The translations under genes and the position numbers were made by a program. The notes under the pieces were generated by a model, which saw nothing but the letters and a program-made list of their open reading frames with translations, was not told the origin of the DNA and ran no database searches. Shown here piece after piece: positions 15,406 through 52,477 of a stretch of 64,000 bases of DNA. This DNA is from a virus (lineage: Duplodnaviria > Heunggongvirae > Uroviricota > Caudoviricetes). The number at the start of each line of letters is the position of its first letter. Position 1 is the stretch's first letter. The DNA is taken from IMG/VR virus record IMGVR_UViG_3300037423_001636, positions 1 through 64,000 of that record, one strand, 5' to 3'.

Positions 15406-15708
15406 CTTTATGAACAGTCCTGTCGCAATCTACATCGGCGGCTCTCACTGGCTCCGCAAGGGCGAGAAGGTCTTCATTCGATTCTTCAACGTAATCGGGC
15501 AAATTCCCCGCGGTTCACATCTCCCACCTTACGTCCCAGATACTACGGTCACGGCGGAAGCTCTGGCGGAAGCTGGGGTGCGCCTGCCGCCACTGGAAAG
15601 CCTGAAAGTAGGGGATTGCGTGTGAATGTTTGGGCTGTGGGCTGGTTTGCCCATAATGAGCAAATCACCCTATTGCCTCCAGCCTACTGATTCTGCTACG
15701 ATTCACCC

Positions 15709-16062
15709 ATGCAACGAGCACCAACACAAGCGCAAACCACCCCGCACGCTACTTCCAACGGCTATCGCATCCGTTTTCCAAAGGATAGTCAGTTGGCCAC
15801 AATTCGCGGCTGGAACGGCAAATCATACGCCATGTCGGTTTCGATCTACGAAATCATTTCCGATGAGACGAATTGGGGCTGCAAGATTCCCGGCTACAAT
15901 GTGGGCGACAAGGTGAGGATGATTTCCGGAGTGGAGGAAAGTGAGCGTCTCGGGCATCATCCGACAAGAATGTGGCGGACTGTTTGCCGAATTGGAGCGG
16001 AGCATGCTGAGCACGTGGGGTTTCCCGTGACGGCACTGCGTCTGGTGAATGGGGGTGCGTGA
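15709..16062 (+). CDS. hypothetical protein (leaderless)
   Basis: ATG 52 nt after box at 15657. Confidence 0.7.
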   Translation: MQRAPTQAQTTPHATSNGYRIRFPKDSQLATIRGWNGKSYAMSVSIYEIISDETNWGCKIPGYNVGDKVRMISGVEESERLGHHPTRMWRTVCRIGAEHAEHVGFPVTALRLVNGGA

Positions 16063-16589
16063 TGGCTGGCGGGGGCAATCAGACCACCTACGACGAGGGC
16101 ACGCGCCGAGACGCTGAAGAAGTGCGCCGATTTGCGGCCCACATGGGCGTCGAACTCCCCGAACGCTTTGACGGCGACATGCACCCGGCCGCGCAGTGTA
16201 TGAATGGGGCTCTGATGGATATCATTCAGCTGACGAATGCCCTTAGGAATATCGCGTTGACGCTGGGCGTAGATGACTACGAAAAGGCGCGAATGGTGGT
16301 TGAATCGGCTTTGGCCAGTCCATCAATCCTTCAACCTGCCGAAGCAGGCAATCTCTCCGTGAATACGCCCACAAATTCCTCTTCACTCGGCATCACTATC
16401 CCGGACAACGATCCCCGACCCCAGAAGCACGGCGGCCTGCGGCCAATCAAAGGATTGAAGCCCCGCTGCATAGACCCTTCCCATGAGCCACCCACACACA
16501 TAGTGATCCCGCCCGGCTATGAATACGAGCATGTGTGTCCGAGCTGTGGATTTACGATCGTTCTGTGGGGGCACGATGTCACCTTGTAA
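16062..16589 (+). CDS. hypothetical protein with C-terminal Zn ribbon
   Basis: C..P.HEPP.H...H.CPSCG. Confidence 0.6.
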   Translation: MAGGGNQTTYDEGTRRDAEEVRRFAAHMGVELPERFDGDMHPAAQCMNGALMDIIQLTNALRNIALTLGVDDYEKARMVVESALASPSILQPAEAGNLSVNTPTNSSSLGITIPDNDPRPQKHGGLRPIKGLKPRCIDPSHEPPTHIVIPPGYEYEHVCPSCGFTIVLWGHDVTL

Positions 16590-16611
16590 GGCTTGATTTC
16601 TGTTTTTTTAC

Positions 16612-16748
16612 GCTCTTGTATCACAAAACGGTCTAGGGGAATCTGTTCCGGCCGGATGGTCCTCCCTGAGCAGTCCACTGCTGCGTATAGTGGGGCGCGT
16701 GACCAGCGCAGTGATTTCGCAAGGTTCGAGCCCTCGCCAAGAGCACCA
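16612..16748 (+). ncRNA. tRNA-like RNA: acceptor, D and T arms and CCA; 77-nt D-loop insertion; no anticodon arm
   Basis: GCTCTTG/CAAGAGC-A-CCA; TA; TCAC/GTGA; GCAAGG-TTCGAGC-CCTCGC. Confidence 0.75.
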
Positions 16749-16767
16749 ATTTCTTTAACATTCTCTC

Positions 16768-16796
16768 TTGACTGGCGACACAATCTGTGCTCTATT
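16768..16796 (+). promoter_or_regulatory. sigma70-like promoter for ncRNA
   Basis: TTGACT-17 bp-TCTATT with TG extension. Confidence 0.55.
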
Positions 16797-16803
16797 CGCC
16801 TCC

Positions 16804-17112
16804 AACAGGTAGGCGCATGACCGTTCCGCCACTCAAACTAGATTCAGCTCTTTTACAGGAGTAAGTTTCAACTGTATTGCATAAGCGATACCGTTGGAGC
16901 GAAGCTCCAACAACAATTCCAGCCTTTGATCCGTGCGAAAAATCTGTGGTCGTAGCCCAGTACCGCACGGGGAGGCTTACGAATGGACGGCGGTAGCGAA
17001 TTGACCTTTCTATGGGCTAAACGACAGGTCAATAGGGAGCCGCACTGGAGAGTAGCACCATCCCAGTTTCTGACCACACATACGCCCGTGGCACGTCCAA
17101 TCACTTTTTTTT
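16804..17112 (+). ncRNA. large structured ncRNA with double pseudoknot
   Basis: many perfect helices; one loop pairs with two distal segments; ends in T8. Confidence 0.7.
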
Positions 17113-17133
17113 GCCGCCCTCGGGTGCGAAAGC

Positions 17134-17350: not shown

Positions 17351-17410
17351 GCGGTATAGGGAAAACTCCCCATTGACGAGCCTCTGCTAGTCTGGTAGAG
17401 TGTGCGTCTT

Positions 17411-17884
17411 ATGAATCCAGCCGCCTACATTCCGCTCACCCAATGCGTCAAGGGCAAAATCTATCGGCTTAATAGCCGCAATCTGGAGATCGGCGTGTAT
17501 GACGGCAAAGAGGGATTCATCGGAATCCGGGAGAAGTTCGGCCGTTTCTATCTCTTCACGGAATATCACCACGATCAGGGGCCGTCGGTTGGCACGGTCT
17601 ATCCACTGGAGGTTATTGGCGAATTGCCAGCGACAATTGCCGTCAACGATAGAGAGATCCACGCATGGGGTGACGGTTGGTTCTGGGATATGGAGCTAGA
17701 AATCTGGAAGCCCATAGCTCGCCGCGATCTGAAAGAGGGTGAGGCTCAGCATGGAACGCGACAGGGATTTGTGGACGAATTTGCCGGAACCAACACTCGG
17801 CTTGGCGACAATCAGTGGCCCTGTTTGCGCCGAAACGAGGCGCTATTCGACTACCTCAAAACGCTGGAGGCGCTTGGAGAATGA
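17411..17884 (+). CDS. hypothetical phage protein
   Basis: SRNL..GVY....GFIGIREKFG; boxed promoter. Confidence 0.75.
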   Translation: MNPAAYIPLTQCVKGKIYRLNSRNLEIGVYDGKEGFIGIREKFGRFYLFTEYHHDQGPSVGTVYPLEVIGELPATIAVNDREIHAWGDGWFWDMELEIWKPIARRDLKEGEAQHGTRQGFVDEFAGTNTRLGDNQWPCLRRNEALFDYLKTLEALGE

Positions 17885-18843: not shown

Positions 18844-19107
18844 TCATAGACGACAATATCCCTCCACTCCTTGTCACTCAGCTCAGACTCGACGTTCAGG
18901 CCGCCGATGACGCTATCATCAGAATGGAGCAGGCTGTCCATCCGAATCATTTCAACCGCGTGGAAGAGCTGCGAACGGTGCGGATTCTCTTGGCCGGCGT
19001 GCTGCACAGACTGGAGAAGGACATCGTGGCGTCTGCTGACCCGAAGGCAGAATAGGGAGTTGTCCTCATTGTGCTTTCGCCCCGCACTCTGCTATAGTTT
19101 TACCGCT

Positions 19108-19470
19108 ATGACAACGATATTCAACCCAGAGAAAAAAGATAAGCTCACTTACGGCGAATGTCTCGGCCCCGCCATGAAGATCACTGACCCGGCTGATGCG
19201 ACGCAGTATCTCAAAGCATATGCATTCATTCAGGTCGCGTTGGATCGTGGCGAAGGCAATAGGGGCGGCAAGACCGCGGAACAAATTGCCAAGAGCAATC
19301 TGGGCTACTATGCTGGCTATTACGACAACGAGACTCGTGAGCGCGTTGAAAGACTGTTCAATTGCAATCATCCGATCTTTGGGGCAATCGCGGAGAAAGC
19401 GCCGCCAACTCCAGAAGAGGCGTTTGAAATGGGGCGGAAAATGGGCGCGGCGAGGAAGCGGTCACGCTGA
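19108..19470 (+). CDS. hypothetical phage protein
   Basis: NLGYYAGYYD...HPIFG; boxed promoter. Confidence 0.75.
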   Translation: MTTIFNPEKKDKLTYGECLGPAMKITDPADATQYLKAYAFIQVALDRGEGNRGGKTAEQIAKSNLGYYAGYYDNETRERVERLFNCNHPIFGAIAEKAPPTPEEAFEMGRKMGAARKRSR

Positions 19471-19521
19471 GGTATCTCCCTTATTGTGTTTGTCCCTCAA
19501 TTCTGCTACATTCACACCACC

Positions 19522-20214
19522 ATGCCAAATCACGTATACTCCACCCTCCGTATCCGCGGCCCGCAAGCCGACATCGCTCGTCTCATCAAGACCGCTACCG
19601 TCAAAGCAGAAAAACACGGCAAGATGGAAAAGTTCATCAAATTCGACCGCCTGTTTCCGTGCCCCTGTGAGCTGTTTGAAGTTACTTCCCCAGTTCGAAT
19701 CGTGTCTGAAGAAGAGTTCCAAAAGCAAAAGACTGAACTGGCCGAGCGTAAAGCCCGGATCGCGGCGGGGGAAGAGAAAGAGTCGCTGTTTGGCATGTCA
19801 CTTTCCATCTCTTCGTCATATCAAAAGGAACTGATCCGCCGTTTCGGTGTGGATAATTGGTATGACTGGGCGATCAAGAACTGGGGCACCAAATGGGGTA
19901 CTTATGATGTCGCTCAGAGGGAATCCAAGACGGGCGAAGCCAATTTCTCCTTTCAAACCGCTTGGAGTCCCGCGGAGGGATTGTGGATCAAGGTTAGTGC
20001 CGATTTCCCCACACTGGAATTCTTCACTGAGTTCGCAGATGAAGGTGGCGGCTTTGTCGGCACACAGACGTTCAAGGAGGGCGAAAAGAGCGAGGACAGC
20101 GATCCTGATTGGAGTTCTCCGGAAGGCATCCAAATCCGCAAGAATGTCGGCCAATGGAGCGACGAGGAAGAGGATGAAGACGAAGAGTCTGAAACCAAGG
20201 ACGCCAATGTTTAG
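19522..20214 (+). CDS. DUF1281/Api92/YubB ferredoxin-like domain protein
   Basis: MPNH, NWYDW...NWGTKW, FQTAWSP motifs. Confidence 0.8.
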   Translation: MPNHVYSTLRIRGPQADIARLIKTATVKAEKHGKMEKFIKFDRLFPCPCELFEVTSPVRIVSEEEFQKQKTELAERKARIAAGEEKESLFGMSLSISSSYQKELIRRFGVDNWYDWAIKNWGTKWGTYDVAQRESKTGEANFSFQTAWSPAEGLWIKVSADFPTLEFFTEFADEGGGFVGTQTFKEGEKSEDSDPDWSSPEGIQIRKNVGQWSDEEEDEDEESETKDANV

Positions 20215-21410: not shown

Positions 21411-21839
21411 ATGAAAGCCTCAAAACCATGGCCGCGAATCAGGGTCAACGAGAAGACACTCGGCGCTCGCGTAGACCGATTCATGAAGCGCAATCCAGCC
21501 CCAAAAGACAATTGGCCATTTCTCTATCTCTACGTAGATCACGGAATGCGGTATAGCCAATATCTGGATCGCTCCTTTTTCAGTGCCTACACTCCTGAAG
21601 GTGTGCAAGACTGTGTAGAACGTCGATTCATGAACGCAATCATGCGGGGGAAGGGTTCGAAACGGAAGCTTCGTAGAGAGATTGAGTGCAATCCACATTT
21701 ACACCCACTGCTCAAGGAGAATCTGATTCTGAATCTCCGATGTTTTGGCTCCAATCCAGAATTCTATCAACATTCCCGATTCATGCCGGTTGGTCTGACT
21801 GACAAACAGAAAGCGCAGAGGATCGTGGATGGAGATTGA
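21411..21839 (+). CDS. hypothetical protein
   Basis: stop codon is the first triplet of the box at 21837. Confidence 0.65.
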   Translation: MKASKPWPRIRVNEKTLGARVDRFMKRNPAPKDNWPFLYLYVDHGMRYSQYLDRSFFSAYTPEGVQDCVERRFMNAIMRGKGSKRKLRREIECNPHLHPLLKENLILNLRCFGSNPEFYQHSRFMPVGLTDKQKAQRIVDGD

Positions 21840-21890
21840 GGAAAATACCCTATATCAATCGATCGTAAAATCTGCTATACTATACGCGTC

Positions 21891-22199
21891 ATGAAATCTA
21901 CTCCTATCCCTCCACATCTATCCGTCACGCTTAGCGCCGCGCAAGGTCGCAAGCTGTTGGCCGCACTTCCTGACGCTTCGAAAGGTCTAGTCTACATCTG
22001 TATCGGTGCAAACTGCTGGGGACAAGCGTTGAACGCGAAGCTGGCCGCCGAGCGGGCGCGCTCCGAGGGTTCGGCGGGAGAATATATCATACACGCAGTC
22101 GGTAATGGAGCTGAGGTCGATCAGGTCAACGGAACACTCTATTACAACAGCAAGGTGGCCGGCACGCAGGTTGGCATCGCTCGCTTCAAACAGTCATGA
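21891..22199 (+). CDS. hypothetical protein (leaderless)
   Basis: boxed promoter. Confidence 0.7.
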   Translation: MKSTPIPPHLSVTLSAAQGRKLLAALPDASKGLVYICIGANCWGQALNAKLAAERARSEGSAGEYIIHAVGNGAEVDQVNGTLYYNSKVAGTQVGIARFKQS

Positions 22200-22706: not shown

Positions 22707-23213
22707 GTGAATCCCGTGAACCTAGAATCTCTCATCACCGCATACCGTGCCGGCCAGCAGGCCCAATTGCAATTGGCCCAGCGGGCACGCAAAGTCTTTC
22801 GGACAATCCAACGGTTCAATCTGAACGCGGTAAACGACATCAGGCGAATCCGCTCCTATCGGTCGGAATACCTATGCGAGCATGGAATCGACCAACTTCC
22901 CCCAGACCCCATCTTCGCCGGCACTCAATGGTCGCGGGCAGACATTGAAGCCAATGGCGTGTCTATCGTATCTTCCGAATACATGGGCGATGAGGAATAC
23001 GACTATCACACTTTCACCCTCCCATTTACCGCGCTCTGGCAGACAGACGATGAGATCGAGGCAACTTTGCGCGCTAATCTTACTCGATATCTGTCGGAGG
23101 TGGCCCAGCACGAAGAGCGGAAAGCGCGGGAAGCAGAGGAGGAAGCACGGCAGCGATACGAAGAGCTGAAAGCGCGGTTTGAGCCGCTAACTCCAGATAA
23201 GCTCCAAGAATAA
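22707..23213 (+). CDS. hypothetical protein
   Basis: C-terminal coiled coil; stop is first triplet of box at 23211. Confidence 0.65.
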   Translation: MNPVNLESLITAYRAGQQAQLQLAQRARKVFRTIQRFNLNAVNDIRRIRSYRSEYLCEHGIDQLPPDPIFAGTQWSRADIEANGVSIVSSEYMGDEEYDYHTFTLPFTALWQTDDEIEATLRANLTRYLSEVAQHEERKAREAEEEARQRYEELKARFEPLTPDKLQE

Positions 23214-23263
23214 GGACATGTCCCTATCGACATCGGTCTGACAATCTGCTACGCTCCACTCCA

Positions 23264-23788
23264 ATGAATCACTCTCCCGAAACCATCCAAGAGCGACAAG
23301 AACGCCTCCAGCGCGAAATCAACGAACGCTACAAACTGCTCCACGCTATGGAAGCAGACATCGAGCGCGACACTCTAAAGCGGGCTTTGACCGCATTAGG
23401 CCAAGCCGGGGCAATCCTTGCTGTAGATTGCTGCCACGAAGAATGCATTGACGGTAAAGTGCTGACGAGCGACGGGCGACCCGACGGGTATGAACTCCAG
23501 AAGCTTGTCCCCGGTTTTCACAACTATCACGAATCAATGAGCGTCGTGCTGGACGATCTCCGCATCTCGCTGCGAGCTAATGACGGCATCATGAGTCTTG
23601 GAATTTACTACGAGAACAAGACTCTTTTGGAAGCGGGGGCCAAATACGATGAGAATCTGAAAGCCGCAAAATCTCTCATTCGGAGCTATGGCATCCAGCT
23701 TAGTGACGCGCCACTTCAACAAAAACGCTTGCAACTCATGAAAGATGCTGAAGAGCTAACGGACGCGATCAAACGATTGAATGTTTGA
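23264..23788 (+). CDS. hypothetical protein (leaderless)
   Basis: boxed promoter. Confidence 0.7.
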   Translation: MNHSPETIQERQERLQREINERYKLLHAMEADIERDTLKRALTALGQAGAILAVDCCHEECIDGKVLTSDGRPDGYELQKLVPGFHNYHESMSVVLDDLRISLRANDGIMSLGIYYENKTLLEAGAKYDENLKAAKSLIRSYGIQLSDAPLQQKRLQLMKDAEELTDAIKRLNV

Positions 23789-24764: not shown

Positions 24765-25103
24765 ATGCCATCCCGCATCTCTCTAGCCACGTCTCGCAAA
24801 TCCAAGCAACGCATTCCCAACTGGAACACGAATCCAGACAAGATCACGCTCAATCAGCGAAAGAGCCTGAAAAGATTGGACCGGCTCATGGATAAATTCG
24901 TGAAGTCCATGGACACTCTGTCCTATCTGAATCTAGAGCAGAGCGAGGCGCTGATTGCGGATATGGAATACGAAGTGATGCGCTACTTCCCATCTTCTTG
25001 GCCTGACGTACAGGCGCGTCTAAATGGTCTGATAACTGACCAGCAGATTGAGGGATCTTCCCTACAGACAGACGACCAAGAGTGTGATAGAGTGGTCGCA
25101 TGA
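24765..25103 (+). CDS. hypothetical protein
   Basis: ORF in overlap chain. Confidence 0.6.
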   Translation: MPSRISLATSRKSKQRIPNWNTNPDKITLNQRKSLKRLDRLMDKFVKSMDTLSYLNLEQSEALIADMEYEVMRYFPSSWPDVQARLNGLITDQQIEGSSLQTDDQECDRVVA

Positions 25104-26381: not shown

Positions 26382-26700
26382 CAACATCTCAATCCAGCGT
26401 AGGGCGAAGTCCCTATTGCGCCGAAAGCGCGAATCTGCTATATTCTGCTCACGATGAATCCCAAAAACACCATTCGAGTCACTCTCGCCTACAATCCAAA
26501 TGCCGGCGCTCTTGGGCGGTCTGAAAAGACACCTTATCAAATCACCAAGATTGTTGGTGCAGTCCGAACGAGCGCCAAAAACTCTCACGTGGGCGACTAT
26601 CTCACGGAGAATGAGGCTGTCTACCTGTCTATGGCAGCGGACACTGAGGTCACAGTTGTGCCGGCGAAAGGCTGACGGCCAATTCACATCCCCTCTTCAC

Positions 26701-35011: not shown

Positions 35012-35060
35012 GGCAAGCACCCTATAGACTATCCACTCACAATCTGCTATAGTCTTTCCC

Positions 35061-38015: not shown

Positions 38016-38351
38016 TAATCCTACGGATTCTCAATCAATCATGAAAACTGTCTGGATCGCCTCCCTGTCCAATATGCCTCTGTTCGTGTTTAATCAGAAA
38101 CCGACAAAGGCCGATCTTAGGGAACAGTTCAATTTGTTTATGAGGTTCGCTGAGCCAGTGACCCACAAACTGGATTGGAGCGTAAAAGAGGTTCCGGTGA
38201 TTGAATTGCCGCCACGTCGGGCATTGCGCCGGGTCAAGCCCGGCAAATGAGGAGCATTCCCTATTGCGCAAACAGCACCTATCTGCTATATTCACTCTCG
38301 CAATGAAACAGATCAACCACACTCAATCGACTCTCTGAGCCACACACTACA

Positions 38352-38930
38352 ATGGGCACTCGCGGATCAATTGGTTTTCGCATCGACGGCAAGGACTATC
38401 TCGCCTACAATCATTCTGATTCCTATCCCTCCGGGCTCGGCACCGAATTCGTAGCTGAGGTCAAGAAACTGATCAAGGACAAAAAGCTCGCGGAGAAAGT
38501 CCGCGCCATTCGCCTTGTGAAAAGGGGCGACAAGCCCACCCCCGCCGACGTGGAGAAGCTGAAACCCTATACCGATCTGGGCGTCGGCAACCAAAGCACG
38601 TCCGACTGGTATTGTCTGCTCCGCAACGCGCAAGGCAGTCTGAAAGCGACGATTGATTCGGGCTACATACTGGACAACGCCACATTCATCCACGATTCCC
38701 TGTTCTGCGAGTACGCTTACATCTTGAATCTCGACACCGGCAACGTGGAGTTCTACAAGGGATTCAACAAGGACCGGAAAGCCGCGGGGCGCTACGCCGC
38801 GATCGAATCGAAAGACCGGGATGGCAAGTTCGAAGAATACTGCGGTTGCGTTCTCGCGGCCGAATTCCCGGCCAATGCAATCCCAAAAGACTGGGAAAAG
38901 AAAGCGTTCCCACCGGAGAAGGACGAATGA
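38352..38930 (+). CDS. MGTR-family phage protein
   Basis: MGTRG, D.YPSG.G, DSLFCEYAY..NLD. Confidence 0.8.
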   Translation: MGTRGSIGFRIDGKDYLAYNHSDSYPSGLGTEFVAEVKKLIKDKKLAEKVRAIRLVKRGDKPTPADVEKLKPYTDLGVGNQSTSDWYCLLRNAQGSLKATIDSGYILDNATFIHDSLFCEYAYILNLDTGNVEFYKGFNKDRKAAGRYAAIESKDRDGKFEEYCGCVLAAEFPANAIPKDWEKKAFPPEKDE

Positions 38931-38980
38931 GGGTTTTTCTCACTACGTTACAGCTATTAACCTGATAGATTCTTTCATTT

Positions 38981-39667
38981 ATGGGAACACGAGGCAGCAC
39001 ATTCGTTCAACTCGACGGCCAATATAAGGTCGCTCAATACGGGCAGTGGGATCACTATCCGTCCGGTCAAGGCGCAATCGCTCTTCACTTCCTCCATTCG
39101 CTTAAAACTGAATCAGATTTGCAGAAGTTCCGGCAGAAAGTCCGGGCGCTGATTCCAATCACAGAGAAAGAACTGGAGGATCGGTGGGTGGAGTGTGGTG
39201 CGGCGCGCGATGCATCTGGAATTTCCTTCGGAGTGTCGGATCGCATGAAAGCAAAGTATCCTCACCTACAGCGGGACTGTGGGGCGAAGGTTCTCGAATT
39301 GATTGCGAAAGACAAGATTCCTGATAGCAACGTTCAACTCGACTTGGAATTCCCAAAAGACTCCCTGTTCTGTGAGTGGGCTTACGTAATCGATCTCGAC
39401 AAGAACACGTTTGAGGTCTACAAGGGTTTCAACAAGCGGCCCCTGTTGAAGAATGCACGGTTCTATTTCGACGGTTATCACGATGACAAGCTTCACGACC
39501 CAAAGGAATATAACAAGAAGAGCAAGGGGAAGCCATATCACTACTATCCGATCCGCCTCAAGAAATCCTACAGGCTGGACAAGCTTCCATCGCTTGGCAA
39601 ACTAATTCTGGATTGCGAGGGCAAGGAAGCCGCGGCGGAGTGGGAGAAACGCAATCTGGCAATCTAA
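38981..39667 (+). CDS. MGTR-family phage protein, tandem paralog
   Basis: MGTRG, QWDHYPSGQG, DSLFCEWAYVIDLD. Confidence 0.8.
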   Translation: MGTRGSTFVQLDGQYKVAQYGQWDHYPSGQGAIALHFLHSLKTESDLQKFRQKVRALIPITEKELEDRWVECGAARDASGISFGVSDRMKAKYPHLQRDCGAKVLELIAKDKIPDSNVQLDLEFPKDSLFCEWAYVIDLDKNTFEVYKGFNKRPLLKNARFYFDGYHDDKLHDPKEYNKKSKGKPYHYYPIRLKKSYRLDKLPSLGKLILDCEGKEAAAEWEKRNLAI

Positions 39668-40420
39668 ACACCATGTTCCCTCGCTACACTCACACCGATC
39701 GCTCTGGCATGAACTGGCGATTCGCCGGCTCGCGCCCCATCTCCGCCCTAGCTGATTCCGTCATGGCAGAATGCGGATTTGAGCCGAGTAAAGATGGAGC
39801 GGGGTGGAAACCGAAAAAGGTCCGGCGTAAGCCGCACAAAACACGGTCCAAATGAGGTCTACTCCTCATTGCGTTCCCACCTGTGAATCTGATAGAGTGA
39901 TGGCGTCATGAAAACCTATCTACTCGTCATCAACTTCTTCAATGGAACCGTGTTCCAAGCAGAGCGCGAGTGCAAGAGCTGGCGCGGAGCCAAGCAATGG
40001 GAGACTAACACGATCAAGCGGGAGACTAAGGCCCGCGGCTCCGACTGGCAAAAGCGCAGTCTCGGAATTAGCAGCTGGCCCGGCAACAATGCGTTCAATC
40101 GGTGGGTGGAGGGGAAAGCGGTAGACTGAATCTAATCAATCATGAGAACCACACGCGCCGAGTTAGATGAACTAGCCGCCAAATGCGGACTGCAAATCCA
40201 GCACGATTGCGGGGGCTATCGAGTCGCGCGGGGTGGCGCTTATCTCTTCCCCGACACCGGCATCTGCCCCACGGCTACACGCAAGGAATGCGCGATATTT
40301 CTCCGGGGCTATCTCGTTGGGGTGAGGAATGTAACGATACGGTCAACAATCTGAAGCAAGGATGATTTGAGTAGTCTACCCTATAGATATTTCGTCCGCA
40401 ATCCATTATAGTCATGCGTC

Positions 40421-40582
40421 ATGAAAAGCCTTTTTATTCATTTGGTCATAACTGCGCTGGCTGTTGGTTTGGCGATTGGTGCTTTTAAGCAAGAGATGCC
40501 GCCTATAGTGACGTATCCTTTGCTCATGGTTGCCATGGCGTTTGGTTTGGCGTTAGTAGTGCGGCTATTCTTGGAGGACTGA
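40421..40582 (+). CDS. small two-TM membrane protein (leaderless)
   Basis: translated by hand: MKSLFIHLVITALAVG...; boxed promoter. Confidence 0.6.
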   Translation: MKSLFIHLVITALAVGLAIGAFKQEMPPIVTYPLLMVAMAFGLALVVRLFLED

Positions 40583-41723: not shown

Positions 41724-42272
41724 ATGAAATTAACAGCGCAGGCACAGCTTGAGACGTTCTATGCGTTCAAACGCATGCACCGGAATGATCTTATTCATAT
41801 CGCCGAACAGGCAGGGTTGGAACCGACTCACTACAACACGCACGAGAAACGGGCGGCTGGGGTAACTGTGTTTTATTATCGCTCGGTGGCGCTGTTCGCG
41901 AGCACAAAGAAAGAGATCAACAAACCATTCGGCCAATGACCATCGGCCAAATAGCTGAGGCAGCTAAAGCGGCGGGCGTGGACTCTGCGAAACTCACGCT
42001 CGCGCTACATGAGCCGGTTTATTTCTATCAGTGGCGCTATGGCACTGGTCACGTTACGTTCGGAAACCATTGCACAGAAACAGAATGGCTGGCACAAGTG
42101 ACAAAACAGTTGAAAACCAACCCCGGTTCTCCCATCAACCTGATTGAAAAGAAGGGGCCATTCGTCGAATGAAACACGATCACCACTCTTACGATAATAA
42201 GGAGAACCCCCTATAGACAAGGGACGCAAACTCTGATATTCTCTTTCCTGTTCGATTGATAGTTCAATTTAC

Positions 42273-42814: not shown

Positions 42815-43249
42815 ATGTCCTTTCGTCCCATCATCTGGAATCAATACCTCGGCAAACCTGAATGCCCTTACATGCGGCGATGGGTGCTGAATCTAGGTCT
42901 TTTCTCCATTCGTTTGCATCAGTGGTTTGCGGGCGACGACGATCGCGCTCTGCATGATCATAGCTGGGATTTCTGGGTGTGGGTCCTGCGCGGCTCCTAT
43001 ATGGACATTTCCAAGAGCAAGGGTCAGATGGTCGAGCAACTGATGGTGCCTTCATGGCGTCCGACCTTCCGCAAAGCTGAGCATGCCCACACAGTCCAAA
43101 CTAAGGGGTGCTGGACTCTACTACTGACTGGCCCCGAGCGACGAGCGTGGGGCTTCTTCATGAAGCTGCCGCGGACTGGCCATGTCAAATGGGTGAAAGC
43201 GAGTCGATATTTCCGCAAGCGTGGGCATCATCCATGCAGCTCAAGTTGA
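42815..43249 (+). CDS. cupin-like phage protein
   Basis: IRLH...DDDRALHDHSW.F...L.G.Y...H.H.V....WTL..TGP..R.WGF. Confidence 0.75.
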   Translation: MSFRPIIWNQYLGKPECPYMRRWVLNLGLFSIRLHQWFAGDDDRALHDHSWDFWVWVLRGSYMDISKSKGQMVEQLMVPSWRPTFRKAEHAHTVQTKGCWTLLLTGPERRAWGFFMKLPRTGHVKWVKASRYFRKRGHHPCSSS

Positions 43250-43298
43250 GGTGTGGACCCCATAGACTCAGGAGATAGAATCTGATAGAGTATCACCC

Positions 43299-43631
43299 AT
43301 GAATTCCGATCCTTATGTCCGCGCCATGTTCGGCCAGAATGCCGTGCAAATCCCATTCAACTGCATCGTACAAGCGGACCCCGACACGAAATCAGTGGCC
43401 GCGATTGTTGTAGTCCGTGGTCCTGAAGCGATGCGTCTAACGTTCGGGAGCAAGCGGACTCACCAACTAATTCTAGGTGACGCTGTTATTCGCCCTCACG
43501 CAGTCATTGAATCCAATCACTGTCGCGGCTACGGTCTGACCGGACTGGCAACCAGCGGATTCAGAATGGACGAGTGGGCTGAAAAGGGCAAAATCATTCT
43601 AGATAGCACGGGCCGTCTTGCAAAAGCATAA
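43299..43631 (+). CDS. hypothetical protein (leaderless)
   Basis: boxed promoter. Confidence 0.7.
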   Translation: MNSDPYVRAMFGQNAVQIPFNCIVQADPDTKSVAAIVVVRGPEAMRLTFGSKRTHQLILGDAVIRPHAVIESNHCRGYGLTGLATSGFRMDEWAEKGKIILDSTGRLAKA

Positions 43632-43643: not shown

Positions 43644-44063
43644 ATGTCCGCCACCACCTATAAAATCAGTTCGTATGACGCTCTCACGCTATTTCGGATT
43701 GGGCGTCCTAATCTCTGCGGTCTGTTGTGCTGGTTAGAACGTAAACTCGGCCCCACTGAAACGATTCTAATCGAGCACTGGACCGACTCTCTGTTCTACG
43801 TGTCTGTGATGGATAGCAGAATCCAAAGGAGTCCCGATAATCTGGGGATCGGATTCACGGTTGACCTCGCGAACGATCGGATTTTCTGGAATGCCAGCGG
43901 CGGGAACTGCTGGGTGCGCTCTGCCAAGTGGAAACGAATGGTAGGCAAGACACGTGTGGACGGGCTTACCGAAGCTCAGGATTTCCACGTGTATAAGGTC
44001 GTTCCTATTCCGAAGGCACAAATTAAGGGGAAGTCCTCAGTGACTTCAGTTGCTGGAGTGTGA
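43644..44063 (+). CDS. hypothetical protein
   Basis: 139 aa ORF. Confidence 0.6.
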   Translation: MSATTYKISSYDALTLFRIGRPNLCGLLCWLERKLGPTETILIEHWTDSLFYVSVMDSRIQRSPDNLGIGFTVDLANDRIFWNASGGNCWVRSAKWKRMVGKTRVDGLTEAQDFHVYKVVPIPKAQIKGKSSVTSVAGV

Positions 44064-44075
44064 TAGACTGTTCCC

Positions 44076-44567
44076 ATGAATTCTGAAACGCGCAGCGAAC
44101 CACACACGATTGAGCCGAAATGGACTGTTACTGAGGCGGTCGCGCCTCCGGGAATGATCGAACTGCACATCGGAACGCCGGCACGCACGTATGCCGTAGT
44201 CTATGCGGACAAAGCAAACAAGCTGGAAGTAGCGGTCGCGCGGGATACGGCAAAGTTGATTGCCCAAGCGCCTGAAACGGCCAAGAGGCTCGAAACTGCG
44301 TCAGCGGCTCTGCTGGAAATGCGCGCCGCTCTGGAGAAGGCCCACGCTGCGCTTACTCAGTATGAAGGAATGAGCACAGAGCTGCAATCGCGATTCGATG
44401 ACGCAACCAAAGAACTGAGTCCATACGAAACATGGATGGTCAAATCCAATCTGGAACATGCTCAGTCAAACGGATTGGAGATGAAATCGGTGATCGCTCA
44501 GCTTCGCAAGACCGGCTACGATAAGATCGCCGATGCAGTTGCGAAGGTGGTGCTATTGGGGGTATAA
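44076..44567 (+). CDS. hypothetical phage protein
   Basis: HT..KW...A.LIAQAPE motif. Confidence 0.7.
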   Translation: MNSETRSEPHTIEPKWTVTEAVAPPGMIELHIGTPARTYAVVYADKANKLEVAVARDTAKLIAQAPETAKRLETASAALLEMRAALEKAHAALTQYEGMSTELQSRFDDATKELSPYETWMVKSNLEHAQSNGLEMKSVIAQLRKTGYDKIADAVAKVVLLGV

Positions 44568-44608
44568 CCCTATTGAACATTCACGCTTCAATCTGCTAGT
44601 ATGACCGC

Positions 44609-45007
44609 ATGACAATGAAGACTCAGCCGAACGCACAGACGCCGGGGCCGCTGGCCGCGACTAACTACACGGACAACGGGGGGAACGAGTGGACCGTGAA
44701 CCCGCAGCGCAGAGACGGACAGGCCGGGCGCATTCTCGCCGTGCTTAACGGGGCCGACTCTGACCGCAATGCGCTAGATGCCCGGCTACTCGCACTCGCT
44801 TACACCGCTTTCGACAAATCCGGGCGGGAGCTGGGAGTGGATGCTGCAATACTAGCCGAACGAATTGATCTGGCTGCGCTAATTAAAGCCTGTCATCTGC
44901 TTGTCATGAGCAACGACCGTAACCCATCTTACTTCGCCCATTTGCAAGATAGCAAGAGCACAATTGCGGGCATTTTGATGCCCCTAGCAGGAGAACTGCG
45001 CCTATGA
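44609..45007 (+). CDS. hypothetical phage protein (leaderless)
   Basis: TPGP...DARLLA; boxed promoter. Confidence 0.7.
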   Translation: MTMKTQPNAQTPGPLAATNYTDNGGNEWTVNPQRRDGQAGRILAVLNGADSDRNALDARLLALAYTAFDKSGRELGVDAAILAERIDLAALIKACHLLVMSNDRNPSYFAHLQDSKSTIAGILMPLAGELRL

Positions 45008-45493: not shown

Positions 45494-46835
45494 AATAGAT
45501 AGAATACGTATAGGAATACACCACCAACAGAACAGACTCAAATTACGGAGAATCAAGGAGATACGAGAATAGGGTAAAAAGAGAGAGTGGGATTGGGTGT
45601 AGGCACCCATTTTTTCCCCTCAATTTCCCAAAACTGTCCTATCTCCACTCATACAGTTTACATCACTCTGCTATCGTCAGCACTAGGCTCGCTCAGATTG
45701 AGGCTTTCTCCCTATATCATTTTGGCCTAACCATCTGCTAGAATGTTTGATCTACTCATGAAAAAACCAATCAAGATCGTCACTATTGTGCTGGCCGTTC
45801 CGGTTAATTCGGAAACCTACATGGATATTTTGTCGGGCGCGAGAGATGATTCCAGCGGCGAAATCATCGAATGGGCCGCGGCGAAAGATGCTGATGGTTA
45901 TAGGGTTGACGATAAAATCGTGGACGGCGAAACGCCGGAAATGTTGGAGCTATTTGAATCGGATTATGTGTCGCCAGAACTGAGGAAAGCTGAGGAGAAG
46001 AGAAAATAGGTGGGTCGGGTATGAAAACTCAGCCAAAAACGTATCCAAAATCCTCCAAATCCGCTAGAGTTGGGTATGGTTTCTGCTAGGGCCGGACACA
46101 ACAGCGGGATTTCATAAACAGATTTAATACAGAGTGTTACAAAAATGACCTTGTTTTGGCACTCTCTGGCCGAAACGTATCCAAAAGAGACTGCCAATCA
46201 TTTGCATCAGTCCACGCATTAGCCATCTTCATTCCTTGATCTGCGCGCCATAAATAGTCCTACTTTACCCACATACCTACGGGAAACCCCTACATGGGGC
46301 ATCGGAAACGGCTTGACACGAGCGTGCAAATTGCTCTAGTCTAGTCTACATCGGAACAGTCTATCTAGCTCACACCCCGGCAATCCAGCCGGCTGCACTG
46401 ATCCCTTGTTCCACCCATCCCGTCTTTCCCATGACGAATCTGAGTGTGCTTGCGCTGGTTTGCTCTCGCTTTTTAGCCACTATCCCGGCGGCTTCGCTGC
46501 CTGTTCCTGCTAGCATCTCCATTTCCATTCCACCCGTTCCGACTCTGACTGGCGATAAAGGTTCCGCGCAATTGGCGCGGGCGCAGTCGGCGCGCAGGGT
46601 GGAGATTGGTCCCACATTATGCTGGATCGATCTCAAGAATGGTCTCGAAATCCATCGCGGGGCGAAGACTGGCAAAATCTACAAGCTTTTTTGCAAGGGT
46701 AGGAAAGTGGGGACGTTTAAGTCCCTGCGGGCGGCGGTAGAAGCCGCTAAGAATGAATGGGTTATATAGGCAGTTAGGGTAATTACTAGCTCTGGTAGGG
46801 ATTATACCCTATCTGAGATTCGGTCTCTTTCGTAT

Positions 46836-47530: not shown

Positions 47531-47881
47531 TCGCTCATCGCGACGGGATTGCTTTAGTAATCCAGCACGATAGTGCGAAATAGCACCAAATAGCCCTGTT
47601 CCGAGTTTGGAGAACACTCGGCAGGGCTATCTGCATGTCTAGGGGAAATTGGGTGTATACACCCAAAATACAGTGAAATTGGGGAATTTTCCCCACTCCA
47701 CAGAATCGCAATGGAGAGGCGATCTCAGTAGAATCAATATTGCGGTATAGAGTCAATTTAGAGGTGCTTAGAATCCAGCTAGAATAGCCTAGGATTTAAT
47801 CCATATCGTTCTAGTAGGGATTAAAAAATGAGTGCTCTACCCTACTATACAGGCTCTTCCGGGTCTGCTAGAATGAGTGAG

Positions 47882-48289
47882 ATGCAAAAAATCCACCTTT
47901 CACCGGCTCAACGTGCGGCTATCCTAGCCGTAATTGCACGTTATTCAGAGCGCCCAAGCCCCGCTGATTACGACAGGGAGCAAAGATCGCTTGGCCGAAT
48001 CGAAATAACACCCAAGCCAAAAGCGAAATCGATTCCGAATACGCTTCCCGGCTTTCAATCTGGAGATGTGAAGCTCGGCGCGGCATTCGATGCCAAACGT
48101 GATTTGCCTGAGGGTTGGGCCGCCGTGAGCTGCCATGATAGCGGGGGGAATCACAGCATCGAAAACGCTGCAACGTGTGTCTGGCGCAACGTCTGGAACG
48201 GTTGGATTGACGGCGCGCCTTACGATCTTGCGGCGAAAGCCGCGGCTCCGGGCGGGGCCGGCGAGACAGTGCGGGCTCTGACAGATTGA
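47882..48289 (+). CDS. hypothetical protein (leaderless)
   Basis: box to box. Confidence 0.65.
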   Translation: MQKIHLSPAQRAAILAVIARYSERPSPADYDREQRSLGRIEITPKPKAKSIPNTLPGFQSGDVKLGAAFDAKRDLPEGWAAVSCHDSGGNHSIENAATCVWRNVWNGWIDGAPYDLAAKAAAPGGAGETVRALTD

Positions 48290-48338
48290 GGTATACACCC
48301 TATATACATTTCACAGACAATCTGCTATACTATTACTT

Positions 48339-48632
48339 GTGAATAGCAGAACGCTCAAAAGACAATCGCTCAGTCAGCTCGCCGCAAAACATGGGGCGAT
48401 AGTCGAGGAGGATGAAGGCACGTCAGACATGCGCCTATTCCAAGTCATTGCGCCGGCCGGCAAGATCTGGAAAGGAGCTGATTTGCATACACTGGTAGTC
48501 CAGTGGGCTCGCGGCGGGTCAGATCAAGCAATCCGATTTAATCAGGATAGCTTTAAAGATGTTGCCGAACGTATGTCCCATGGGCTTCGGGATATGACGG
48601 AAGAGGAGCGAGAGCTGTGCGCGGAAGATTGA
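48339..48632 (+). CDS. hypothetical protein (leaderless)
   Basis: box to box. Confidence 0.7.
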   Translation: MNSRTLKRQSLSQLAAKHGAIVEEDEGTSDMRLFQVIAPAGKIWKGADLHTLVVQWARGGSDQAIRFNQDSFKDVAERMSHGLRDMTEEERELCAED

Positions 48633-48680
48633 GGCATTTACCTCACTAGACAGATTCCCCGCACTCTGCTAGACTCAGGC

Positions 48681-49001
48681 ATGGACACTTTCGCCGATTC
48701 TCCTCGTTCTCTACAGGGATTGGAATTCGCTCAGCTACCCAAAACTCCATTTGCGCTACGTTACGATTGGCAAGCTACTCAGGAGGGGCAGCGTGGAGGT
48801 ATGTCATTTCAATCTACTGAATGGCAGGGAATTTCGGCCGATACTTGGGAGCAAGCTAAAATAAAAGCTCGCGCGCTGGTCAGTGCGATCCCAGCAATCC
48901 GTTTCGATTCAAACGAGCCGCATCATCTGCGCGGGTGCTGTCTTGTGGAATTGGTGGCCGAATTAAGCTCATTTCGCACGTTGGTATTAAGTCCGAATTG
49001 A
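48681..49001 (+). CDS. hypothetical protein (leaderless)
   Basis: box to box. Confidence 0.7.
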   Translation: MDTFADSPRSLQGLEFAQLPKTPFALRYDWQATQEGQRGGMSFQSTEWQGISADTWEQAKIKARALVSAIPAIRFDSNEPHHLRGCCLVELVAELSSFRTLVLSPN

Positions 49002-49049
49002 GGTATATTACCCATAGACTGTTCATCTTCAATCTGCTAGAGTGTCCTT

Positions 49050-49793
49050 GTGAAACAAACTCTCCCACACATCCTGTTCAAAGCCGTGTCTGAAAACAGC
49101 AAGACCGGCCCGATACCCACAACCTATTCAGAATCAAAGACATGCCCGAAAAGCTGTCCATTTTTGAAACAGGGTTGCTATTCCAGATACGGCCCATCAT
49201 TCTGGCACTGGCGTAGGCTCGATCAGGGGACTGCAACGGGTCGAATCACGTGGGCGAAATTCCTGAATAAGATTCGGCACTTGAACAGAGGCCAGATCTG
49301 GCGGCATAACGTCGCGGGAGACTTGCCGGGAGATCAGAGTAAGATTGACGGCAAAGCACTGGCAGACCTCACGAGTGCAAACGCGGGGAAAGCAGGGTTC
49401 ACATTTACGCACCACGACGTTCTGTCCAAACAGAATGGCGCGCATAATCGGGCGGCGATTCGCAAAGCGAGTGCCGCGGGATTCACTATAAATCTGAGTG
49501 GGAATAACTTGCAGCATGCTGACAAGCTAGTCGCAACTGGCGTTGCTCCCGTCGTCACTATCGTTCCGACCGGCTCGCCCAACACCCAATTCACTCCAAA
49601 CGGGCATAAGGTCATCATTTGTCCCGCACAAACACGGGAAAACGTGACTTGTAATTCGTGCCGACTCTGCGCTAAGGCAGATCGCTCTATGAAATGCAAT
49701 GGTGGGAAACAGCTGATTATCGGTTTCCTGCCTCATGGAATGGGAGCGAAGTATGCCGAACGCGTTGCGTCCCGCGGGACTGTTGCCGCATGA
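49050..49793 (+). CDS. Cys-rich phage protein (Gp88/radical-SAM-like family)
   Basis: SENSKTG.I, TCPKSCPF...CY, WRHNVAGD, FTH, CPAQ...TC.SC.LC. Confidence 0.7.
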   Translation: MKQTLPHILFKAVSENSKTGPIPTTYSESKTCPKSCPFLKQGCYSRYGPSFWHWRRLDQGTATGRITWAKFLNKIRHLNRGQIWRHNVAGDLPGDQSKIDGKALADLTSANAGKAGFTFTHHDVLSKQNGAHNRAAIRKASAAGFTINLSGNNLQHADKLVATGVAPVVTIVPTGSPNTQFTPNGHKVIICPAQTRENVTCNSCRLCAKADRSMKCNGGKQLIIGFLPHGMGAKYAERVASRGTVAA

Positions 49794-50030
49794 AATGAGG
49801 ACATTTCTCTATTCTATTTTATCACCGAAATCCTCTAGACTTTACACCTATGGAAATCCTCCTAATCATCGCGCTCATCGTGATCGGCTGCATTGCTGAC
49901 GCGATTGCTAAGCGTGATTGAACTAACTCGTCCCGCGATGCCCGCGTGCGCTATCTATTTCTGGCACTGTGGCCAGATGCATTTTACAGCTTAATCGACT
50001 AACCCTCAACCCGACTACGGTCTAAATCAA

Positions 50031-50543
50031 ATGGGCTACACCCACTACTGGCGGCAAAGCCGCTCCTTCAACACCAAAGAATGGGTGAAAATCACAGCGG
50101 AAGCGAAACGCATAGTTGCAAAGGCCATGCGGGGCTACTATGCCGGCCCGGAAACGGCAGAGTCGGCGGCCAACGCCGGACGCGATGAACAGGGTTTTCG
50201 CACTGGATTCGCCGAGAAATCAGCTTGGCGTACGTTCCCCCACGAGGAAATCGGTACGGCGGAACAGGGCAAGCCGATCGCGCTCTGCGGCTCCGACGGC
50301 ACGGGCGAACCTAAATTCACCGCGGATTGCATTGCTCTAAACGGTTCGCGAGCAAAGAACGAGGATTACGAATCATTCGTTCTGGAGCGCGCTCCAAATG
50401 AGACGTTCAATTTCACTAAAACCGAGTATCGACCTTACGATCCTGTCGTAGTGTCCATTCTCGCCGCGGCTCGCACGATTGCGCCGGACGCGATTAAAGT
50501 CAGTTCGGACGGTGGGGAAGGTGCAATCCGGCTACTGTTCTGA
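50031..50543 (+). CDS. conserved phage protein (MGYTHYW family)
   Basis: MGYTHYW, NG....E.F, F.KT...PYD, SSDG. Confidence 0.8.
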   Translation: MGYTHYWRQSRSFNTKEWVKITAEAKRIVAKAMRGYYAGPETAESAANAGRDEQGFRTGFAEKSAWRTFPHEEIGTAEQGKPIALCGSDGTGEPKFTADCIALNGSRAKNEDYESFVLERAPNETFNFTKTEYRPYDPVVVSILAAARTIAPDAIKVSSDGGEGAIRLLF

Positions 50544-50669
50544 CACGAGTGGAAGGCGAAAGATTGAGGTGATCTCCCTACTAGACAGATTGTGGGAAGT
50601 GTGCTAGACTGCGTGCCGTTGATTAGGAAACACCCAAAACAACCAAACAGAGTCTAATCCATCCCCACC

Positions 50670-51029
50670 ATGTCGAAATCTGATCGCCTCTCCCTCATTC
50701 GCCTGCGCCACGCCATTCTGTTCGGCGTCGCGCTTGGCGCAAACGGTTTCCTTCCCGTTAGCCGGGCCGAAGTGAGCAAAGAAGCTCGCGCCGTGAAAGC
50801 GAAAGTCTCCGCTCAAATGGACGATTCGCTCTCCGAGGGTGATCGCATCGAAGCGCCGGCCGGGGCAAGCTCCCTCATCAGCTCTTTCGATTCGATTGAA
50901 GAGGTGAGGGAAACTGATTCCAATTCACTCCTGTCTGCCGCTGAGCGTCGCCAGCTCGCACGCGAAGTCGGGCCGGTCAAGGCGTTCAAAGCTGCCGTTC
51001 GCTCCCTTCCGCTACGTCTGATGGCGTAG
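50670..51029 (+). CDS. hypothetical protein
   Basis: boxed promoter and A/C-rich leader. Confidence 0.7.
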   Translation: MSKSDRLSLIRLRHAILFGVALGANGFLPVSRAEVSKEARAVKAKVSAQMDDSLSEGDRIEAPAGASSLISSFDSIEEVRETDSNSLLSAAERRQLAREVGPVKAFKAAVRSLPLRLMA

Positions 51030-51065
51030 CACGATCCACAAACAAACAAAACAGAGTCAAAACAC

Positions 51066-51090
51066 CCCGGCGGGTTCACACCCCGCCGGG
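51066..51090 (+). terminator. strong intergenic hairpin (terminator or processing site)
   Basis: CCCGGCGGG/CCCGCCGGG 9-bp stem, weak T-tract. Confidence 0.4.
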
Positions 51091-51405
51091 AACTCTATTT
51101 CTTCCCAGATGAAAACTTTCCTCAGCGAATCCGAAATCATTCACCCAACGCCGCATCAGCTTGCCGCGGAGAAGCGCGCCGCGGCTGTAAACGCCAAAGC
51201 GTTTCGCCATCGGGTGGGGGAAGCGCGGGCGCTCGCGCACTGGCGAGTCAAATGGGAAACGGCACAAGGGTTGAAACAAGCTGAGCCATTCGTCTTTTAT
51301 TACTGGTTGGCCTACGGTAGGGCGCTCGGCAAGAATCTCGCGGAGTAAAAAATTGAGGTGTTTGCCCTATGGCGCTAGCCGCGGCAATCTGCTAGAGTGT
51401 CCACC

Positions 51406-51792
51406 GTGAAAACTACTCGCCTCCGCTACTCCGCTTCAATCACTGTCGAGCGCAATGGTCATGAGATCACGCTCAACGTGTCGGCTACAGTCACAGACGA
51501 ACACAAACAGTTCTATCTCAGCGATTTCAAAACGTCGCCAATTCTACCGTGCGACATAACCGCACAAGAGTATGATCTCGCTGAATCTGCGGTGATCGAC
51601 GTGGCGCGATGCTATCCGGAAACAGGTCAATCTGTGGATAGTGTCAATCCCATCGATCACGACGATCTGTGCGGCTGGTTTCGCGCAGGACGGGCCGCGG
51701 CAATGGCTAACCGCAAATTCGAGTTGCCGAGTGGGGAGAGTGATGCGAGGCGCAACGCGTGGAGTGACGGATTTCGGAGCGTGCGAGGATAA
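51406..51792 (+). CDS. hypothetical protein with C-terminal RMF-like motif (leaderless)
   Basis: FRAGRAAA...P......AWSDGF. Confidence 0.65.
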   Translation: MKTTRLRYSASITVERNGHEITLNVSATVTDEHKQFYLSDFKTSPILPCDITAQEYDLAESAVIDVARCYPETGQSVDSVNPIDHDDLCGWFRAGRAAAMANRKFELPSGESDARRNAWSDGFRSVRG

Positions 51793-52138
51793 AAAAGAAA
51801 TAACATGGCCGCAATCTTTTCCATCCCGCTGATTACAGCTAACCGCGTTCCGATTCAAAATGCAATCGTCGGGCCGATTCAATTCCTCGGGATTCCCCGC
51901 TTTCCCACCATGGATAGACTGTGGACCGTGCTTGCCGACACGCGGCGCATTCGGCGTAGTTTGGAGATTGAGCCGGAAAACGTGCATCTGGGAATCACGG
52001 ACGTTCCGGAAATGATTCAGAAGCTACGCGATTACGAGCGCAAGGTGATGGGAATTCTCAGGACGCAGGGCGCAACTGTGTAAAATAGGGAATCAACCCT
52101 AGAGACAAAATCAAATCAATCTGCTAGAGCCTATCCCA

Positions 52139-52477
52139 GTGAGCGGAATTACTGTAAAAGAACTGAGAGAACGGGACGGCGGCCGATGGGGCGGCAAACC
52201 TCGTGTCAAACGTGCCGAGCTGTTCACGAAAAACGGGTTTCCCGTCCAAGGGCTGCGCAACGCGCTAGACGTTTACGAGTGCAAAACGCTAGAAGAATTG
52301 CAGGCGAAAATCGCCAACCCAGACGAATTCATCGGGCCGAACAGTTTCATGCGTGTGCGCGGTTGCGGCCAACCGGGAAACCCGGGCAAAGTGACTCTGT
52401 TTCTATTTCCTCACTTGCTCAGCCGAGCCGAACAGATTGAGGAAAAGACCCTATTGAATTTGGGTGACGGAATCTAG
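52139..52477 (+). CDS. protein with RNAP alpha-CTD-like HhH motif (leaderless)
   Basis: V..LRNAL....C.TLEEL...F.RVRG.G. Confidence 0.45.
   Translation: MSGITVKELRERDGGRWGGKPRVKRAELFTKNGFPVQGLRNALDVYECKTLEELQAKIANPDEFIGPNSFMRVRGCGQPGNPGKVTLFLFPHLLSRAEQIEEKTLLNLGDGI

Follow-up and report, generated by a model that had tools for sequence, protein, structure and literature searches.

The first 64 kilobases (kb) of IMG/VR record IMGVR_UViG_3300037423_001636, a phage genome of 205,168 base pairs (bp) with direct terminal repeats, contain a family of 32 compact expression modules, all on the plus strand between 15.6 and 52.5 kb of this stretch, which we call the window. We label the phage under study G000, and G001 and G005 to G011 are other IMG/VR records. 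Each module is laid out as a 16-bp box of the form TRRGG-N6-CCYYA, a -35-like element TWG, a spacer of 17-18 bp and an extended -10 element TGnTAnnnT, which is followed in most cases by the start codon of a gene whose messenger RNA (mRNA) would be leaderless. Our direct observations are the motif, its rigid spacing, the independence of its two half-sites and its conservation in relatives of the phage; on this sequence basis, the proposal that the box marks one large class of sigma70-type promoters is supported.

The box pattern matches the window 29 times, compared with 0.52 +/- 0.69 matches in shuffled sequences, and a motif scan of the whole genome gave 31 copies, 29 of which cluster between 17 and 56 kb. 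The extended -10 ATCTGCTANANT, with at most one mismatch, has 32 matches where 3.2 are expected, and nearly all the extended -10 promoters of the leaderless type are boxed. The total of 32 modules is reached when one mismatch is allowed in the box, a rule that adds the modules at 15657, 37209, 40368, 47829 and 48999, plus a variant at 38928. In every module the TG of the extended -10 lies 20 or 21 nucleotides (nt) from the end of the box, so that the hexamer after the box (TTGcgc, TAGACt and others) stands 17-18 bp from the TAnnnT; a T is found at box position 17, and a G at position 19, each in 24 of 30 copies. The start codon of an open reading frame (ORF) of at least 53 amino acids lies 5-9 nt past the -10, and once 13 nt past it, in 28 of the 32 modules (27 of the 31 in our first module list, together with module 40368), which places it 51-55 nt from the start of the box in 27 modules and 59 nt from it in one. 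These values bear out the initial annotation, which had described about 30 modules with a box abutting a degenerate -35 and a start codon 51-55 nt from the box start. The start codon is uncertain at modules 38248 and 50565, the module at 42198 drives an RNA gene, and no promoter abuts the boxes at 46796, 47680 and 55917. The modules and boxes are as follows, in window coordinates.

Module 1, 15657..15711, + strand: box TGAGC..CCCTA with one mismatch, -10 TACGAT, ATG at 15709.
Module 2, 17357..17413, + strand: box, TTGACG, -10 TAGAGT, ATG at 17411.
Module 3, 19053..19110, + strand: TAG of the box is the stop of the upstream 71-amino-acid ORF; ATG at 19108.
Module 4, 19468..19524, + strand: TGA of the box is the upstream stop; ATG at 19522.
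Module 5, 21837..21893, + strand: TGA of the box is the upstream stop; ATG at 21891.
Module 6, 23211..23266, + strand: TAA of the box is the upstream stop; ATG at 23264.
Module 7, 25049..25102, + strand: within the 3' end of the upstream ORF; ATG at 25100.
Module 8, 26400..26456, + strand: ATG at 26454.
Module 9, 31491..31548, + strand: ATG at 31546.
Module 10, 32698..32752, + strand: ATG at 32750.
Module 11, 33109..33163, + strand: ATG at 33161.
Module 12, 33926..33980, + strand: TGA of the box is the upstream stop; ATG at 33978.
Module 13, 35009..35063, + strand: TGA of the box is the upstream stop; ATG at 35061; module kept at the G006 orthologue.
Module 14, 36373..36426, + strand: perfect palindrome, TAGACT-17-TAGAGT, ATG at 36424.
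Module 15, 37209..37266, + strand: box TGAGT..CCTCA with one mismatch; ATG at 37264.
Module 16, 38248..38292, + strand: TGA of the box is the upstream stop; start uncertain, either that of a short ORF at 38303 or, with a leader, that of the 38352 gene.
Module 17, 38928..38983, + strand: variant box TGAGG-N7-CTCA, whose TGA is the upstream stop; ATG at 38981.
Module 18, 39853..39910, + strand: TGA of the box is the upstream stop; ATG at 39908.
Module 19, 40368..40423, + strand: box TGAGT..CCCTA with one mismatch, TAGATA-17-TATAGT, ATG at 40421.
Module 20, 42198..42242, + strand: box and promoter of a structured RNA, no ORF.
Module 21, 43247..43301, + strand: TGA of the box is the upstream stop; ATG at 43299.
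Module 22, 44024..44078, + strand: ATG at 44076.
Module 23, 44557..44611, + strand: ATG at 44609.
Module 24, 45699..45760, + strand: ATG at 45758, 13 nt past the -10.
Module 25, 47829..47884, + strand: box with one mismatch; ATG at 47882.
Module 26, 48287..48341, + strand: TGA of the box is the upstream stop; GTG at 48339.
Module 27, 48630..48683, + strand: TGA of the box is the upstream stop; ATG at 48681.
Module 28, 48999..49052, + strand: box with one mismatch, whose TGA is the upstream stop; GTG at 49050 (DUF7227 gene).
Module 29, 50565..50610, + strand: box and promoter, start codon uncertain.
Module 30, 51354..51408, + strand: GTG at 51406; module kept at the G005 orthologue.
Module 31, 52086..52141, + strand: -10 TAGAGC, GTG at 52139.
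Module 32, 52438..52493, + strand: GTG at 52491; module kept at the G005 orthologue.
Box without abutting promoter, 46796..46811, no strand assigned: a TTGACA-16-TATGGT promoter begins 24 nt downstream.
Orphan box, 47680..47695, no strand assigned: in a 297-nt stretch free of ORFs.
Orphan box, 55917..55932, no strand assigned: at the end of the plus-strand early block.

The RNA of module 20 is structured, about 270 nt long and ends in a T run at 42522-42530; downstream of it lies a tRNA-Val gene (anticodon AAC, 42626-42699).

Both edges of the module reach the neighbouring genes. At the downstream edge, the start codon would lie within about 3 nt of the transcript start predicted from the -10, with no room for a Shine-Dalgarno sequence, as expected from the leaderless geometry first proposed for these genes. 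At the upstream edge, the first triplet of the box is the in-frame stop of an ORF of at least 69 amino acids in 13 modules, the same 13 that the initial annotation had listed, and a fourteenth, ambiguous case is found at 52438. Thus 13-14 of about 31 upstream stops are at offset 0, and the others are scattered from -47 to +52. We read the stop codon in the box as a by-product of compaction: nothing but the module lies between the two genes, and of the four triplets that TRR can stand for, three are stop codons.

Other records with box-promoter modules were found through pattern scans of IMG/VR. G005, from IMG sample 3300020202, is a 98.6-kb fragment with a G+C content of 44%, a large terminase 39% identical to that of G000 and at least 13 modules; G006 (IMG sample 3300036770; 190.7 kb, with terminal repeats, 53% G+C) has a large terminase 50% identical to that of G000, and G011 (191.4 kb, 55% G+C, 35% identity) carries 17 boxes. 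The four genomes have a structural gene block in common. With one rule for all, we counted 27 full modules in G000, 13 in G005 and 16 in G006, each pointing the same way as the genes, compared with 0 in the reversed sequences, G000 included; in the early region of G006, a promoter and then a start codon come after 26 of 28 boxes. Genes with a module open with ATG-AA in 20 of 27 cases in G000, 6 of 13 in G005 and 12 of 16 in G006, compared with 20 of 133 other genes (15%); the module therefore extends into the coding sequence, and this opening fits a transcript that would start on the A of the ATG and be translated without a leader. G007 is an identical (100%) fragment of G006 and the sole near relative of G006 that we found in IMG/VR. 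A scan of contigs for close relatives yielded two short contigs, and the metagenomic relatives of the terminase are, among the matches listed, nearly all 35-38% identical. Nearer terminase relatives, with 57-62% identity, are present in Logan, NCBI and JGI. G001 (194.5 kb, 35% G+C, terminase match of 36%) has no boxes and was dropped from the comparison. The ends of G006 (190500-190671 and 1-154) have tandem repeats of about 60-130 bp at the end junction, which G007 reads across.

The sequence of the box has the signature of two half-sites contacted by a protein around a deformable centre. We propose this reading because the halves pair at chance level, the centre is AT-rich and unconserved, and the proximal half is nearly invariant. 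Perfect 5-bp palindromes make up 8 of 30 boxes, compared with 7.8 +/- 2.0 from random pairing of the halves, and the same independence is seen in G005, with 1 perfect palindrome among 13 boxes, and in G006. The central N6 is not conserved and is 70-83% A+T in genomes of 44-55% G+C; the proximal half is almost always CCCTA in all genomes, and the distal half varies between TGAGG (the most common), TAGGG, TAAGG and TGGGG. The box could instead act as an RNA or DNA hairpin, serving as a terminator, a 3'-end stabiliser or a processing site of the upstream transcript, similar to the PeSL elements of T4-type phages. Its location at the 3' end of the upstream gene and the perfect palindromes in about one-quarter of the copies speak for such a role. 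However, the stem shows no covariation, box positions 3 and 14 form an A-C mismatch in 15 of 30 copies, the low count of palindromes in G005 is repeated evidence of the same kind, no T tract follows the box, and intrinsic terminator-like sites are not enriched (21 found, 21.4 expected). We rejected the hairpin or terminator, to which we give hardly any probability, and the PeSL analogy drawn in the initial annotation is not supported in its structural sense.

The position of the box in the relatives is informative about how it is read. Counted from box start to start codon, the distances in G006 form three classes, with 16 boxes at 52-57 nt, 5 at 64-65 nt and 3 at 79-80 nt, and in G011 the distance is mostly 67-76 nt, with a common class of 73-76 nt. 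In the relatives the box is thus also found upstream of its G000 position, by about 11-12 or 21-24 bp; a displacement of roughly one or two turns of the helix fits a factor facing RNA polymerase from one side of it. These shifts therefore argue against simple occlusion and against the box being a part of the core promoter, namely an UP-like element or extended -35 read by the polymerase itself, perhaps after its modification by a phage protein. The rigid distance of 0-1 nt between box and -35 in G000, the nearly invariant proximal CCCTA and the short A-rich stretch immediately upstream of the box would all suit a core element; nevertheless, a box that works in G006 and G011 from 11-12, 21-24 or more bp further upstream would not, the orphan boxes have no promoters, and two half-sites do not match the known elements for the C-terminal domain of the alpha subunit or for sigma region 4. 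We consider this explanation improbable.

On balance we lean, with moderate confidence, towards an activator-type dimer at the box that acts on the host sigma70 holoenzyme. A sequence-specific protein, most likely a dimer, would read the 16-bp box through its distal TRRGG, the AT-rich 6-bp centre and the proximal CCCTA, and would always occupy the same face of the helix, immediately upstream of a host sigma70-type promoter. With a transcript start assumed at about 7 nt past the -10, the box would span -51 to -36, with its centre at -43.5. The bound protein would touch RNA polymerase, most likely activating it, and about 30 transcription units would fire together. Their mRNA would begin on the start codon or no more than about 3 nt from it, so that translation would be leaderless; the usual ATG-AA start would belong to the module, and the first triplet of the box (TGA, TAG or TAA) often serves as the upstream stop because the module fills the whole intergenic space. 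The start site, the binding of a protein, its dimeric state and the sign of regulation are what we infer in this scheme. More tentatively, and with less than an even chance, a so far unrecognised DNA-binding factor with no detectable signature of Mor, HTH_3 or another known family, phage-encoded, injected or a host global regulator that the phages exploit, would recruit the sigma70 polymerase from one helix face to these approximately 30 leaderless units, with promoter, operator, stop and start fused in a portable cassette of 51-55 nt that would ease gene exchange.

The main rival, which we regard as unlikely, is that the box is the operator of a repressor or shut-off protein, which the phage would make at a later stage or the host would provide and which would silence all these promoters at once, or a roadblock to read-through from upstream similar to a stoperator. 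Known phages spread one repressor site over many intergenic sites of the same orientation, some of them over start or stop codons (PMC9283540, PMC6550527). The promoters of G000, which have a -35-like TWG as well as a TGn extended -10, look able to work unaided, and insulation would be useful where no terminators separate the units. On the other hand, the -35, the -10 and the start site always lie clear of the box, its displacement by 11-24 bp in steps of about one helical turn in G006 and G011 is poorly suited to occlusion, stoperators are asymmetric monomer sites rather than two half-sites, and neither a tyrosine integrase nor an HTH_3 repressor was found.

Several points weigh against the activator. 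The -35-like element and the extended -10 are both kept, so an activator is perhaps not needed, and virulent phages can usually express their early genes without an activator of their own. The half-sites are unequal, the distal one mostly TGAGG and the proximal one mostly CCCTA, unlike the site of a simple symmetric dimer, and the start sites are those predicted from the -10. The search for a binder adds to these points: Pfam and PHROGs revealed no regulator among 117 early ORFs, six-frame searches for HTH_3, WhiB and Mor gave no match, and the best candidate by position has a predicted structure with no known DNA-binding fold. This candidate, a 148-amino-acid protein encoded at genome positions 198771-199217 at the head of the early region, is the best syntenic conserved early protein, with counterparts in G006 and G011, and belongs to a family of 538 representative clusters; its AlphaFold model has a predicted local distance difference test (pLDDT) score of 93, and, apart from a generic helical hairpin, it has no match in Pfam, PDB sequences, Foldseek or VIA. 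Pfam on 148 other ORFs showed no regulator among the matches listed (the first 25 of 55 families), and the Mor/C family PF08765 had no match in G000, G005 or G006 at E-values up to 10.

The initial annotation had also suggested that recombination between boxes shuffles whole gene modules, which our comparison weakly supports. Inside the boxed region, shared genes are reordered in G005 and two are swapped in G006, with collinear flanks; this scrambling is compatible with cassette exchange, in pairs that are too distant for the mapping of breakpoints. The same scrambling could suggest that the box is mainly a recombination joint for the insertion, deletion and shuffling of promoter-gene cassettes, with regulation as a secondary role, and this view is favoured by orthologues that have their own module in one phage only and by the precedent of PeSL (PMC2839356, PMC4122927). 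It is opposed by the module copies themselves, which share about 25 scattered conserved positions and no long identical stretch, by the lack of recent box-flanked duplications and of any site-specific recombinase among our findings (a six-frame search for tyrosine integrase found none), and by the helical phasing to the promoter, which it leaves unexplained; we regard it as very improbable. In three orthologous gene pairs with 32-38% protein identity, every element from the box through the -35 and the -10 to the start codon stays in register, with different spacers, and within a genome similar DNA is found only in the module, over 36-76 bp, apart from a single match of 78 bp shared by two genes that are neighbours. 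Because the modules are kept at orthologues this distant and similarity is confined to them, we conclude that selection maintains them and that they did not arise by recent copying.

Among the known systems, the middle and late promoters of phage Mu, with their Mor/C activators, are similar in geometry: upstream of a sigma70 -10 they have a 16-bp element that contains two inverted repeats of 5 bp and has its centre at about -43.5 (PMC4390567, PMC2582627), the arrangement of the box in G000 when the start is assumed at 7 nt past the -10. The promoters of one temporal class are turned on in Mu by a small regulator that the phage encodes, comparable to the shared switch proposed for G000. The differences are that Mor/C promoters have no recognisable -35 hexamer, whereas G000 keeps a -35-like element; that Mu has one to four such promoters and G000 about 30; that in the relatives of G000 the site also works about one or two turns further upstream; and that no Mor/C homologue was detected in G000, whose mRNAs appear leaderless.

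The T4-type PeSL elements resemble our modules in having a sigma70-type promoter, dozens of repeats among small orphan genes and a tie to variable gene content (PMC2839356, PMC4122927), and a sigma70-like promoter in the intergenic spacers of small variable genes is indeed found in G000. Nevertheless, the PeSL palindrome is a GC stem-loop that terminates transcription, whereas the halves of the G000 box lack covariation and form no terminator; PeSL has a Shine-Dalgarno sequence between its -10 and the ATG, whereas in G000 the start codon comes only 5-9 nt past the -10; and distant relatives of G000 retain the sequence of the box itself.

The stoperators of cluster A mycobacteriophages are asymmetric 13-bp sites for a monomeric immunity repressor of temperate phages and are not tied to promoters (PMC9283540, PMC6550527). 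Like the box, they occur as about 30 copies of a site for one protein, all pointing the same way in the short gaps between genes and sometimes lying over stop or start codons; the G000 site, in contrast, is formed by two half-sites fixed to a promoter, and no lysogeny genes (tyrosine integrase, HTH_3) were found. In the leaderless promoters of Deinococcus-Thermus and Thermus phages, the start codon comes 5-9 nt after the -10 hexamer without a Shine-Dalgarno sequence, and such promoters control many genes (PMC12340547), as in G000, but they have no conserved upstream box. What is new is the combination of a non-hairpin dyad at a Mor-like distance, leaderless ATG-AA starts, an embedded stop codon, about 30 copies and clade-wide conservation.

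Outside the boxed region, a second promoter-like motif, AAC(T/C)-N13-18-(C)GTGTAAA, has 17 sites upstream of structural and replication genes (56-205 kb of G000), such as those at window position 61507 and at genome positions 85120, 85616, 101024 (minus strand), 103616 (minus strand), 141516 and 157298. GTGTAAA is also enriched on the coding strand of G006. In its AAC / CGT pattern, this motif resembles the promoters of extracytoplasmic function (ECF) sigma factors. There are two small sigma-like genes in G000: one at window positions 59310-59927 on the minus strand, with a Sigma70_r2 match at an E-value of 5e-8, and one at genome positions 74693-75370 on the plus strand, with a weak region 4 match, which is kept in G000, G005, G006 and G011. 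Their proteins align with 31% identity over region 2 of the 59310-59927 protein. Because of this second, ECF-like motif elsewhere and the two phage sigma-like genes, we infer that the boxed modules form the host-sigma class, early or middle, of a two-tier programme.

Boxless extended -10 promoters (CTGCTAGAGT) are found at 4506, 6589 and 11966, two of them with a start codon 6-8 nt past the -10; those of the first 15 kb may form a separate, perhaps earlier, class. Phage contigs of the records G008, G009 and G010, with 37-42% G+C and no protein homology to G000, have the palindrome TAGGGG-N4-CCCCTA abutting TTGACA-N17-TGGTAAAAT promoters at the same spacing as in G000, and these promoters are followed by a GGCGCC word and hairpins, not by a leaderless gene; the same TAGGGG-N4-CCCCTA also lies directly downstream of other promoters in these contigs. 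Between two early genes of the window, at 51066-51090, there is a strong hairpin with a 9-bp all-GC stem (CCCGGCGGG, a 7-nt loop, CCCGCCGGG) and no clear T tract.

By its gene content, G000 looks like a jumbo phage of the siphovirus type. Recognised genes include a homologue of the central tail fibre protein J, the large terminase and a DnaE-type polymerase, and we take a 1944-amino-acid ORF within the tail-gene block to encode the tape measure protein. No cultured phage is close; megablast against cultured phages gave no match. Almost all genes from position 1 to about 56 kb are small and on the plus strand, and almost none of them were recognised with Pfam and PHROGs. The few early-region genes with a family match include those of a PhoH-like ATPase (61538-62323; 57-67% identical in G005 and G006, 35% in G011), a DUF932 protein (53733-54812) and a DUF7227 protein (49050-49793). 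The late genes of G000 also lack a Shine-Dalgarno sequence. Matches to GT9 heptosyltransferases hint at a Gram-negative host. The -10 of Caulobacter RpoD is GCtANAWC (PMC8144410), and the TGCTAnAnT of G000 is partly like it; this likeness is weak, given that in G005 the n of TGnTA can be any base.

If the activator reading is correct, about 15% of a jumbo phage genome would be run by one protein-DNA switch joined to leaderless expression, through a compact cassette that holds a stop codon, an operator, a promoter and a start codon in about 55 bp. The module would offer a handle for finding the regulator, for predicting the expression timing of orphan genes in uncultured phages and for testing leaderless translation during infection. 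The conservation of the box at 35-50% terminase identity makes it a useful marker for the early regions of this clade and a candidate orthogonal promoter-operator part.

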